A DNA stretch of 8,929 nt from an archaeon (lineage in GTDB: Archaea > Asgardarchaeota > Thorarchaeia > Thorarchaeales > Thorarchaeaceae). Shown one piece after another: positions 1-8,929 of the stretch (the first letter of the stretch is position 1; each line of letters begins with the position of its first letter). The stretch lies in assembly GCA_024275415.1 (NCBI GenBank), contig JAJRZD010000047.1, forward strand, positions 1-8,929, read 5' to 3'. Under the pieces are notes generated by a model. That model was not told the DNA's origin, ran no database searches, and worked only from the letters and a program-made list of their open reading frames with translations. The position numbers and the translations under genes are program-made.

Positions 1-13
1 GTTCTACTCAAAC
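1..13 (-). CRISPR. Probable truncated first CRISPR repeat (5' 13 nt, GTTTGAGTAGAAC) of an array extending off the left end
   Basis: Lies downstream of cas2 and a leader-like stretch. It aligns without gaps to the 5' half of known archaeal ~30-nt repeats (haloarchaeal I-B GTTTCAGACGAAC..., Thermococcus GTTTCCGTAGAAC..., both from memory). No spacer or second repeat is visible. Confidence 0.55.
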
Positions 14-121
14 CCTGCGGGAAAACCCTGAAAAGGGTAGGAACGGGGGCATATAACCTTTTTTTGGGGGAGGTGGTGCGCAACCCCCCGGTACTGTAGT
101 GAGTATATAAACCCCTGTGCA
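14..121 (-). promoter_or_regulatory. CRISPR leader (left), with BRE/TATA-like AAAAAAAGG-TTATAT (TATA at 56..51)
   Basis: Non-coding, starts 44 bp after the cas2 stop, carries an archaeal promoter-like motif ~40 nt before the putative repeat; canonical cas2-leader-array position. Confidence 0.65.
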
Positions 122-165
122 AGTGAGGGACAGTAGCGAGGGGGAGAGGGGCGTGACATGGGCCA

Positions 166-429
166 TTAGACGATGAAGGAGGTGTCGCCGAGTTCGACGC
201 CCATGATTTCTTTTTGGACATGATGGGGGTTACGGACTTTGAAGAAATAGATAGCATCATAATCAGGGTCTATTATATTTCTGAGTCCGGATTTAATGAG
301 TTCGAGTTGGGCGTTGGTGACGTTTCCTTGGAAGACGGAGTTTTGGATCCAAGTGAGGTAAGTTTTAAGGAATTCGTGCACTTTGGTTACTCTTTTTTCT
401 TTCACGTCATAGACGACCAAGAGGAACAA
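166..429 (-). CDS. cas2: CRISPR-associated protein Cas2 (87 aa from TTG 429; ORF is open to GTG 438)
   Basis: N-terminal LLVVYDV and WIQNSVFQG motifs, typical size, follows cas1. GGAG lies upstream of TTG 429. Confidence 0.97.
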   Translation of the reverse strand: MFLLVVYDVKEKRVTKVHEFLKTYLTWIQNSVFQGNVTNAQLELIKSGLRNIIDPDYDAIYFFKVRNPHHVQKEIMGVELGDTSFIV

Positions 430-443
430 GGGGAACACTCCTG

Positions 444-1412
444 TCAGAGGTCAATTGGTTTGTAAGTCCGGTCACCCAAAAAATGCTTAGCAAGTTTGTA
501 GCACTCCAATCGGATCATATAACGATATGAGACATTTCGTTTCAGGGTGGGATGTTTTTTTGTTTCTGAGAGGCGGTTATGGTATGCTTTGATGAACTCG
601 GTGAGAGGGTCTGGTTTTAAGCGATAGCCGATGTCTTTTTCGAATGAATCAGCACGAATGATATTTTGGTTTACAAGTCTGGTGATGACTCTCGTACAGA
701 CAAGGGGTTTAAAGAGGTCAGCGAGGTCAAGTGCGAGGGAATACCGACGTTCCAGAGGTTCGTGGAGGAACGAGATAGCTGGATGCAGATAGGTCTTATG
801 GATTTCTGAGAGGACAGTGGCATATAACATGGAATTGGCAAGGGAGATGAGGCTGTTCAAAGGGTCAGTTGGTGGACGATATGTCCGCGATTGTATCTTG
901 AAGGAAGGGCAAAGGATGTTATGTGCGTCGTAGTATTCTTTCCACATCATGCCTTCATGCCCCATCAGTTCAGCAGGTGTATCTCCGTCGATGGGGACTG
1001 ATTGCACAGAAAGTACCGCATTCCCTACATCTTTACCTCTCCGTTGGTAGTATTTGAGGGAATTGATCATTGCTGTCTTGATGCCTAGGACTAGCGAGCG
1101 TGCTATTTCCAATCGTTTCGAGGCGTTAAGGTGACACGCAGCTTGGCTGATAACGACTTTTCCCGAGATGAGGTCTTCTTTGGGCATGAGGCTGCCAATG
1201 TAAGCGCCATATTTATTGTAGAAATGTACGGGAATCCCTTCTTTCATCAACAGGTTGGCGGCGCCGCTTCTGACTGTTACTTTTCCAAGGCAATAGATAT
1301 CTGAAACATTCTTTATCGGAAATGGTCGCTTACCCGACTCCTCGTTTACCGTGTATATAGTGTTCGCTTTCCTGAACATGACAACGTTGGATTTGATGTA
1401 TATTGGTTCCAT
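444..1412 (-). CDS. cas1: CRISPR-associated integrase Cas1, type I-B (322 aa from ATG 1412; ORF is open to 1454)
   Basis: Motifs LMGHEG, RPPTDPLNSLISL, ISFLHE, SLALDLADLFKP supply the catalytic E/H/D. ATG 1412 sits 4 nt after the cas4 stop. Confidence 0.98.
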   Translation of the reverse strand: MEPIYIKSNVVMFRKANTIYTVNEESGKRPFPIKNVSDIYCLGKVTVRSGAANLLMKEGIPVHFYNKYGAYIGSLMPKEDLISGKVVISQAACHLNASKRLEIARSLVLGIKTAMINSLKYYQRRGKDVGNAVLSVQSVPIDGDTPAELMGHEGMMWKEYYDAHNILCPSFKIQSRTYRPPTDPLNSLISLANSMLYATVLSEIHKTYLHPAISFLHEPLERRYSLALDLADLFKPLVCTRVITRLVNQNIIRADSFEKDIGYRLKPDPLTEFIKAYHNRLSETKKHPTLKRNVSYRYMIRLECYKLAKHFLGDRTYKPIDL

Positions 1413-1416
1413 AAAA

Positions 1417-1911
1417 TCACACTCTACAAAAATCAAAGTACGAGCAACCTCCACAATGAGGTCGCTTTTGGATTGCTGGGGGAGATTGCATTTCGACGAT
1501 TGTTTCTATATGTTGGAGGATTCTATCAAGCTCTTCTTCTTGTTCCGCAGAGAGTTGTACTGTTTTCCTTATCCGTTCTTTCGGATAGACGAGTACGCCC
1601 TTCGCATTCTCGACACCCATTCGCTTCAGATAATAGAGGTAGTACAGAAGCTGGTATTCCGCAGGCTTGGTCAGCTTTCTTGATTTTTTGATTTCGAAGA
1701 TGACAACACCATCACGGGACGAGGCAAAGTCCACAGCAATTGTGTCGTGGATGATGATGTTCTTCTTCTCTCTTTTGAAAGCGGTTTCGTGAAGGAGACG
1801 GCCGAGGATGATGTTCTCATCTTCAAAGTTCATGTTGATGCCATGGGAATAGAACCACAGCTCCCTGTGGCAGGAAAAATAATATTGGACCATCACACCA
1901 GTTATCCGCAT
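1417..1911 (-). CDS. cas4: CRISPR-associated exonuclease Cas4 (164 aa)
   Basis: One N-terminal Cys (SCHR) plus C-terminal CxxC-x5-C for an Fe-S cluster; RecB-like D...EIK motif and QLLYY; GGAGG upstream of the ATG. Confidence 0.97.
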   Translation of the reverse strand: MRITGVMVQYYFSCHRELWFYSHGINMNFEDENIILGRLLHETAFKREKKNIIIHDTIAVDFASSRDGVVIFEIKKSRKLTKPAEYQLLYYLYYLKRMGVENAKGVLVYPKERIRKTVQLSAEQEEELDRILQHIETIVEMQSPPAIQKRPHCGGCSYFDFCRV

Positions 1912-1920
1912 CGTCCTCCC

Positions 1921-7751: not shown

Positions 7752-8444
7752 TCAACCACCTCTTATCGGATTGATAAACCCGAACCCCAAGGAGTTCTTC
7801 TCACCCAGGCCGGTTTCCATAAGAAAGTGATAGAATTCTCTGAACTCTTCAATATCGTGTTTGACAAGTGATTTCCACATCGTACCAATGAACACCAAGT
7901 CCTGACCCCTTATGTTGACTGGCACTGCTATCTCCCTACGAAGCTCCACCTCATCGAAAATTGGTCCCTCTATATCCAGCCTTGTGCCAGTAAAGAACTC
8001 GTACTTCTTCAATGCATTGTCCTTCAACCTGTCAAGAAAGAATGAAATATCTCCATGCTTTCTGAATGAAAAAAACTCGCCACTTTGACTATCTCTGTAC
8101 AACAAAATCGGACTCCCTGACTGGAATTCGTGTCGAACTTTTATCGCGAGTACTTTTGCTGTCTTAATCACAAAGTCCTCTGTCCCTAACCGTATCACTT
8201 GTCGTGCTCTCGTCCATTCCAGGATGGTCTCAATGAGACCTGGATAGGGCGAGGATATTATCAGTGACCCCCTGCCTCTACGGTCATAAAAAAAATCAGA
8301 ATAGGTGAAATATTTGAACCCTGACTTGTCGTGCGCTTTCCCGAACATGGTCTCTCCTAATGCCGTATAGATCATTCCTTGGATGCTGTGCTTGTCTGGA
8401 TAGTAGCGACCATTCCTATTTTGTAGCGATAGAAGCATCCTCAC
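7752..8444 (-). CDS. cas6: Cas6 crRNA-processing endoribonuclease (230 aa from GTG 8444; ORF is open to GTG 8468)
   Basis: C-terminal GLGEKNSLGFG glycine-rich loop and HD..GFKYFTYS motif; GGGGGCGA 6 nt upstream of GTG 8444. Confidence 0.96.
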   Translation of the reverse strand: MRMLLSLQNRNGRYYPDKHSIQGMIYTALGETMFGKAHDKSGFKYFTYSDFFYDRRGRGSLIISSPYPGLIETILEWTRARQVIRLGTEDFVIKTAKVLAIKVRHEFQSGSPILLYRDSQSGEFFSFRKHGDISFFLDRLKDNALKKYEFFTGTRLDIEGPIFDEVELRREIAVPVNIRGQDLVFIGTMWKSLVKHDIEEFREFYHFLMETGLGEKNSLGFGFINPIRGG

Positions 8445-8486
8445 ATCCAATCGCCCCCAATTTCGCACTAGTCCAAGCTTTCGCTC

Positions 8487-8500
8487 CTTATAAGAACTTC
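8487..8500 (-). promoter_or_regulatory. Putative archaeal promoter of the cas operon (TATA box TTATAA at 8493..8488)
   Basis: TTATAA lies ~44 nt upstream of the likely cas6 start, implying a TSS near 8462-8466. The BRE match is weak. Confidence 0.6.
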
Positions 8501-8517
8501 GTGTGTGTAGGCCCGAA

Positions 8518-8539
8518 TAGTTCTAATGATATAGAACTA
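8518..8539. promoter_or_regulatory. Palindrome TAGTTCTA-n6-TAGAACTA (operator-like site or hairpin)
   Basis: Perfect 8-bp arms (8518..8525, 8532..8539) ~25 bp upstream of the putative cas6 TATA box. The structure is seen directly; the function is inferred. Confidence 0.45.
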
Positions 8540-8716
8540 CATTGACGCACTACATTCCCTTGATCCCAGTAAACACCAAGATACACCACTCGGATACATA
8601 ATTAGCACTCGCTCCATATAACACCCACCAGCAACCTCTAGATAATATTTCGAGATCCAATACAATATTGCTTGCGTGACCTCCTGTAATGTTAGCCTCA
8701 ATCTCATGTCCATCAT
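8537..8716 (-). CDS. Possible 59-aa hypothetical peptide (MMDMRLRLTLQEVTQAILYWISKYY...)
   Basis: Open ATG..TAG frame just below the ORF-track cutoff, co-oriented with the operon. No clear RBS and no recognisable family. Confidence 0.2.
   Translation of the reverse strand: MMDMRLRLTLQEVTQAILYWISKYYLEVAGGCYMERVLIMYPSGVSWCLLGSRECSASM
8557..8651 (-). ncRNA. Candidate degenerate crRNA-like cas-regulatory RNA (CreR/CreA-like); guide part 8621..8587
   Basis: 8621..8604 matches 8493..8476 (cas6 TATA region) at 15/18 positions, with TTC directly 5' of the target. Similarity of the flanks to a repeat is weak. Confidence 0.3.
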
Positions 8717-8808
8717 ATTTCTATCTCTGACCCGTTCTCAATCCAATGATTTTGCTGCCATCACCTGCAATCTGGATACCTTTCTGTTTGCTACATCTCA
8801 CCCATACC

Positions 8809-8916
8809 TGCACAGGGGTTTATATACTCACTACAGTACCGGGGGGTTGCGCACCACCTCCCCCAAAAAAAGGTTATATGCCCCCGTTCCTACCCTTTTC
8901 AGGGTTTTCCCGCAGG
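8809..8916 (+). promoter_or_regulatory. CRISPR leader (right), divergent from cas6; AAAAAAAGG-TTATAT at 8865..8879
   Basis: Identical to the cas2-proximal leader; BRE/TATA-like motif faces outward. Confidence 0.65.
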
Positions 8917-8929
8917 GTTTGAGTAGAAC
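8917..8929 (+). CRISPR. Probable truncated first CRISPR repeat (GTTTGAGTAGAAC) of an array extending off the right end
   Basis: Same sequence and reasoning as 1..13; truncated by the window end. Confidence 0.55.

Follow-up and report, generated by a model that had tools for sequence, protein, structure and literature searches.

A complete type I-B CRISPR-Cas operon between two identical, outward-facing leaders in a Thorarchaeota-like Asgard archaeon

The window analysed here is the entire contig C26 of genome G000, 8929 nt long. [quoted passage not shown] Both leaders face outward, and each runs into the first bases of a CRISPR repeat, where the contig ends. The genome is a bin of 3.5 Mb in 127 contigs, the shortest of 1558 nt, with a contamination of 4.5%. 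Since it encodes a TATA-binding protein (TBP), and since the nearest named relatives of the window Cas8b are proteins from Thorarchaeota metagenome-assembled genomes (MAGs; 53-61% identity), the host is considered a Thorarchaeota-like Asgard archaeon. The features of the window are listed below by position, strand and content, with the profile matches that identify each gene.

1..13, minus strand: start of CRISPR repeat 1 on the cas2 side, first 13 nt, cut by the contig end
14..121, minus strand: leader copy A, the 108 nt in common with copy B; exact reverse complement of 8809-8916
122..165, minus strand: 44 unique nt that separate the shared leader segment from the cas2 stop codon; the arms diverge from base 122
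166..438, minus strand: cas2; PF09827, E=4e-21; TIGR01573 above cut-off
444..1454, minus strand: cas1 (Cas1b); PF01867, E=3e-69; TIGR03641 (type I-B Cas1b), 381 bits versus a cut-off of 304
1417..1911, minus strand: cas4; PF01930, E=4e-54; TIGR00372 above cut-off
1921..4260, minus strand: cas3, HD nuclease fused to helicase, a single protein of 779 aa
4235..4957, minus strand: cas5 (Cas5b); TIGR02592, 126 bits versus a cut-off of 97
4964..5941, minus strand: cas7 (Csh2); TIGR02590, 276 bits versus a cut-off of 172; PF05107
5938..7755, minus strand: cas8b (Csh1/TM1802 family); PF09484, E=8e-114
7752..8468, minus strand: cas6; PF01881; TIGR01877, 95 bits versus a cut-off of 59
8469..8808, no strand: unique region of 340 nt between cas6 and leader copy B
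8809..8916, plus strand: leader copy B, made of the same 108 nt as copy A and pointing away from cas6; TATA box at 8819-8826
8917..8929, plus strand: start of a CRISPR repeat on the cas6 side, 13 nt, broken off where the contig stops

The operon is composed of eight contiguous open reading frames (ORFs) on the minus strand, from 166 to 8468, in the order cas6-cas8b-cas7-cas5-cas3-cas4-cas1-cas2. All eight matched Cas families in Pfam and NCBIfam profile searches, and no further gene is present. An earlier note on this DNA, made from the letters alone, had described an interior with cas genes only, and this description holds: among the window ORFs the profile searches found no transposase, no casposase-type module and no site-specific recombinase, and there is no room for one. 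An Rfam scan of the window gave no match. The subtype is I-B, Cas1, Cas5, Cas7 and Cas8 all falling in type I-B NCBIfam models above the curated cut-offs. For Cas8b, these are TIGR02556 (207 bits versus a cut-off of 157) and TIGR02591 (156 bits versus 104). Beside Cas8b, the locus contains the Cascade subunits Cas7, Cas5b and Cas6, a Cas3 in which an HD domain (TIGR01596, residues 18-221) is followed by a helicase core (TIGR01587, residues 279-631), both above cut-off, and a cas4-cas1-cas2 module with a type I-B Cas1. Pfam matches of Cas3 (Cas3-like_C_2, DEAD and HD) are of the same kind. The associated array is also of the type I-B kind, with repeats of about 30 nt, a TTGAAAC-type handle and an adjoining leader. 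Look-ups of the exact window Cas8b, Cas7 and Cas2 proteins returned no record, and a scan of the genome contigs with back-translated Cas8b yielded no confirmed relative.

The two ends of the window, 1-121 and 8809-8929, were compared directly with the reverse complement and found to be exact reverse complements of each other, the first mismatch being at base 122; the perfect 121-bp inverted repeat claimed from the first reading is thus real. A repeat finder reported slightly longer arms, 1-129 and 8801-8929, at 98% identity. The repeat is far above chance, since the next-best inverted repeats in the window reach only 14-21 nt at 76-94% identity. When the genome itself was searched with window bases 1-165, three places were found: the two ends of the window and the beginning of contig C63.

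This third place reveals what the repeat is made of. Positions 1-114 of C63 are the exact reverse complement of window 1-114 and match both window ends exactly; the 30-nt repeat GTTTGAGTAGAACTAATGTTGTGTTGAAAC present on that contig begins with 13 nt that, as reverse complement, make up window 1-13. The proposal that the inverted repeat consists of a leader plus the start of a repeat is therefore confirmed. The C63 array extends from 102 to 1266 of that contig and includes 17 identical copies of the repeat and a degenerate last one, 18 in all, separated by 17 unique spacers of 34-38 nt. Its orientation follows from three features that agree with each other: the repeats end in GTTGAAAC, the degenerate repeat lies at the far end and the leader at the near end. 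The spacers showed no self-targeting beyond an 18-nt chance match, and spacer 1 had no match in viral contigs.

In leader copy A, a TATA box, TTTATATA, is found at 104-111 on the minus strand, 98 nt before the repeat, and a G-run/TTGCGCACC motif follows about 22 nt downstream of the box. The two window arms were aligned (alignment A1) with the leaders of Logan contig L032 and of G019 contig C48 (L024), two related loci. All of the aligned leaders, without gaps, have a box of the TTTATATA type 98 nt before the first repeat, with the G-run motif about 22 nt downstream. Such an architecture is that of archaeal promoters, and the leaders are accordingly predicted, from sequence, to act as promoters. 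The segment shared by the two window arms begins 10 nt upstream of the box, which indicates that the duplicated unit is a whole leader with its putative promoter, and not a fragment of one. The paired leaders at 14-121 and 8809-8916 thus are exact reverse complements, adjoin the cas genes and both contain the TATA box and the motifs. A search for the leader DNA in 40 related genomes gave no match, and neither the leader-repeat junction nor the repeat turned up in exact-pattern scans of metagenome contigs, species-representative genomes and viral contigs.

The region between cas6 and leader copy B contains a TTATAA at 8488-8493, read from the sequence, and alignment A2 shows that related loci have a TTATAA or TTATGA element at a comparable place upstream of cas6; it is a candidate promoter element of the cas operon. 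Just upstream of it, 49 nt before the cas6 start, two 8-bp arms around a 6-nt loop form a perfect palindrome (TAGTTCTA-ATGATA-TAGAACTA, 8518-8539), the sole perfect copy in the genome, three looser copies being found elsewhere. One arm, TAGAACTA, also corresponds to bases 8-15 of the CRISPR repeat. The palindrome may be an operator for a cas regulator. A mini-array with a degenerate repeat, of the CreA/CreR kind, was also looked for within the window and rejected: the best match, 18 of 30 positions, equalled that of shuffled controls.

The length of the inverted repeat was evaluated against the assembly as a whole. The earlier note had suspected a contig break produced by an assembler working at k=121. 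End-to-end contig overlaps in G000 are of exactly 141 nt in 56 cases, which sets the final k at 141 and not at 121. The terminal shared length, that is, how far the sequence of each contig end recurs anywhere else in the assembly, was determined for the 254 contig ends; it shows peaks at 141 (113 ends), 131 (18), 121 (13) and 111 (4), the mark of a multi-k assembly in steps of 10. Among the 13 ends that stop at 121 are both window ends, and for each of the other 11 the stretch from a mismatch with another contig to the contig end measures exactly 121 nt. The suspected break is confirmed by these peaks, with 121 as an intermediate and not the maximum value of k. The window ends were frozen at the k=121 stage, and the outer limit of the repeat is an assembly break and not a biological edge. 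The true shared segment is longer than 121 nt and probably extends to the last base of repeat 1 (138 nt) or beyond. A recurring overlap of 114 nt was considered as a second assembler signature and discarded, as the peak was unconvincing over a broad background of dead ends of 101-140 nt. More generally, when the two ends of a short contig form a perfect inverted repeat of "round" length, this should be read with caution, as the intermediate-k signature of a multi-k assembly.

Many contig pairs in G000 overlap by 200-330 nt with 2-3 mismatches (C118/C91, C11/C42 and C103/C10, for example), which indicates that strain-level variation, and not true repeats, is the main cause of the fragmentation of the bin.

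A fragmented metagenome bin of this kind, contaminated at the level given above and with many contig ends frozen at strain-level differences, might in principle create the inverted repeat itself. Each genome would then have one leader and one array, and the second arm would derive from a fold-back chimera or from two strain variants that carry the cassette in opposite orientations beside one and the same leader and array. The recovery of a single array would suit this explanation, and a short contig whose two ends form an inverted repeat is a classic picture of a collapsed repeat. The inner junctions, however, speak against it. Both of them (cas2, 44 nt, leader; cas6, 340 nt, leader) lie on one unbranched contig path, which crosses 340 unique bases on the way from cas6 to the leader and 44 on the way from cas2. 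Every assembled read that leaves cas6 or cas2 would therefore run into a leader; with a chimera or a strain mixture that continued differently, the contig would have stopped at base 8808 or 122. In addition, several reads would have to share a chimeric junction, and its place just upstream of the leader promoter would be a coincidence. An artefact of assembly or population is for these reasons considered very improbable.

The start of C63 provides a further indication on what lies beyond the contig ends. It falls at position 8 of the shared segment, and 131 nt counted from there end at position 138 (8+131-1), which is the last base of repeat 1. This would fit a branching node of k=131 at the boundary between repeat 1 and spacer 1, as if two different sequences followed leader and repeat 1 in the read set. 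Such a branch would agree with an array behind each leader. We consider it likely, although well short of certain, that the complete I-B operon lies between two outward leaders of which the one on the cas6 side heads a second array. Concerning the two outward arrays flanking the operon that had been proposed from the first reading, the leader and the 13-nt repeat start are indeed present at both ends, and a single array, that of C63, has been recovered. Its physical link to the operon is the 114-nt contig overlap, by which C63 could join either end of the window. The attempt to place it by synteny, using the genes that flank the G019 locus, was uninformative, their homologues being on other contigs.

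Several observations weigh against a second array. No other array with this repeat was found in the 127-contig bin, where up to four substitutions were allowed: the only occurrences are the C63 array and the two 13-nt stubs at the window ends. Just these 13 nt of repeat are visible after leader B. The branch at the start of C63 might come from one array whose newest spacer differs between strains, or the start could correspond to a node of k=121 with divergence at position 21 of the repeat; it could also be a chance dead end. Both window ends stayed unextended at k=131 and k=141 while C63 was apparently extended. Finally, the closest relatives examined (G019, Logan contig L032 and G006) show neither leader nor array upstream of cas6 within the sequence covered.

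On this ground the cas6-side copy might be a solo or vestigial leader with a partial or single repeat and no working array, serving at most as a divergent promoter and perhaps left behind after the loss of an array. The short stub after leader B, the failure to find a second array in the bin and the compatibility of the C63 start with a k=121 node would all agree with such a remnant, and stray repeats do occur in loci of this kind, as in G051, described below. A relic would be expected to decay, yet the two copies are identical over the entire leader, promoter elements included. Binning commonly loses CRISPR arrays that sit on short contigs, which lessens the weight of the missing array, and a k=131 branch exactly at the boundary between repeat 1 and spacer 1 remains the more natural fit for the start of C63. 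A leader without array is thus rather unlikely.

A candidate for the missing partner, an orphan array on the same contig (C63:37434-38881), was ruled out, its repeat and its leader both being different. It is an I-B-like array of 22 repeats (GTTTGAATCAGACTAGAAGTAGGGTTGAAAC), located 36 kb from the first C63 array with no cas genes adjoining, and its leader (L037) has only an GGGGGTTGCA-CACC motif in common with the window leader.

Comparison with Asgard relatives shows which of the two leaders is at the usual place. An array follows cas2 in four related loci: G019 (Cas8b identity 55%), Logan contig L032 (61%), the closed genome G041, and G120. In these, no array was seen upstream of cas6 within the reach of each contig or retrieved segment, which is 141 nt for L032, the side in question being only loosely examined for G120. 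In another locus, L038, only 143 nt are present upstream of cas6. The cas2-side leader would accordingly be the ancestral, syntenic copy, as the related loci have their array on the cas2 side. The opposite arrangement also exists, since G336 has an array only on the cas6 side, pointing away from the operon.

Upstream of cas6 in a genome of the same genus (L034, G006 contig C614, about 1750-3476) there is a tandemly duplicated promoter-like motif (CAATACTTATGAGGAAC, present twice), and beyond it a gene with a zinc-finger-like CxxC motif, seen by eye and guessed to be TnpB-like; no leader or array was found there.

Arrays on both sides are found in G051, a single-contig closed genome of the same phylum. 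The same eight genes in the same order lie between two outward, oppositely oriented arrays, and both leaders adjoin the operon: the array on the cas2 side, of 71 repeats, begins 142 nt beyond that gene, and an inverted one of 93 repeats lies upstream of cas6. The two loci differ in that the G051 leaders are about 90% identical over about 117 nt, versus 100% over at least 108 nt here, and in that the upstream array is 3.7 kb from cas6, versus 340 nt here. The Cas proteins are only 29-49% identical, and both arrays were assembled in G051. Cas2-side, cas6-side and both-side arrays among these relatives indicate that the position of the array is variable among Asgard I-B loci. G051 also carries a lone degenerate repeat between cas3 and cas4 (about 955003; about 5004 in L044), roughly 2 kb before its cas2-side array; it may be stray or regulatory.

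The same comparison bears on the suggestion, made in the earlier note, that the cassette is a non-autonomous mobile unit with leader-derived ends, or that it may be inverted. Such a unit would rely on its leader-derived ends, as terminal inverted repeats, either to be transposed in trans or to undergo programmed inversion. The two ends, being perfect inverted copies, would be suitable substrates, and homologous recombination between inverted copies of at least 121 nt would invert the cassette. In general terms, Cas1 is an integrase related to casposases, and this kinship also lends some appeal to the idea. Against it stand the gene content of the window, with none of the transposase, casposase-type or recombinase genes searched for, and the presence of one copy of the cassette in the genome, with the leader in only three places. 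The ends are ordinary leaders with conserved promoter spacing, the related loci carry the same operon without inverted repeat, and the contig ends are assembly breaks inside the repeat, so that no true termini or target-site duplications can be defined. The mobile unit is not borne out by relatives without the repeat, a single cassette copy and ordinary, functional-looking leaders, and we regard a mobile or programmed invertible element as hardly credible.

Twin inverted leaders flanking cas genes are an already documented layout, and the locus is real but ordinary. That the layout is not new follows from the architecture of G051 and from Sulfolobus islandicus REY15A, where two CRISPR loci with identical 206-bp leaders are found in inverse orientation (PMC9456107). 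Perfectly identical inverted leaders are therefore a known functional arrangement. The differences are that REY15A is a crenarchaeon with a subtype I-A system, that its leader is unrelated in sequence and length, and that both of its arrays have been experimentally shown to acquire spacers. Closer in subtype is plasmid pHV4 of Haloferax volcanii, where eight type I-B cas genes lie between arrays P1 and P2 (PMC4390866, PMC3460438). It resembles the window in subtype, number of cas genes, two flanking arrays, 30-nt repeats and highly similar leaders, and differs in that P1 and P2 have the same orientation, whereas the window leader copies are inverted. In H. volcanii escape mutants the whole cas cluster is deleted by recombination between flanking repeats or leaders (PMC3460438). 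With inverted copies, recombination would instead flip the window cassette without deleting it. The further proposal that ongoing recombination or gene conversion keeps the inverted leaders identical, and that the 8.7-kb cas cassette flips in the population, is distinctly improbable in our judgement. If it were true, a flip would swap which array lies downstream of cas2, and the inverted layout would spare the cas genes a repeat-mediated deletion of the kind that occurs in Haloferax, where the arrays are directly oriented.

The reading that we prefer, a complete operon between two outward leaders with a second array on the cas6 side, can be outlined as follows. Each side of the operon would have a full leader with its promoter, a transcribed leader and a leader-repeat junction. 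The cas6-side leader would be a lineage-specific inverted duplicate of the ancestral copy, most likely heading a second array transcribed away from the operon. Cas1, Cas2 and Cas4 would add spacers at either leader-repeat junction, Cas6 would process the transcripts of both arrays, and Cascade and Cas3 would use both sets of CRISPR RNAs (crRNAs). The multi-k de Bruijn assembly, frozen on both sides at k=121, accounts for contig ends that stop after 13 nt of repeat.

With this locus, the small set of type I-B systems from Thorarchaeota-like Asgard archaea gains a further complete member whose leader and promoter architecture is defined. The conserved 98-nt spacing between TATA box and repeat, together with the G-run motif, could guide leader annotation in the clade, and the 17 spacers of the C63 array, as well as those of the putative second array, offer a way to search for Asgard viruses.

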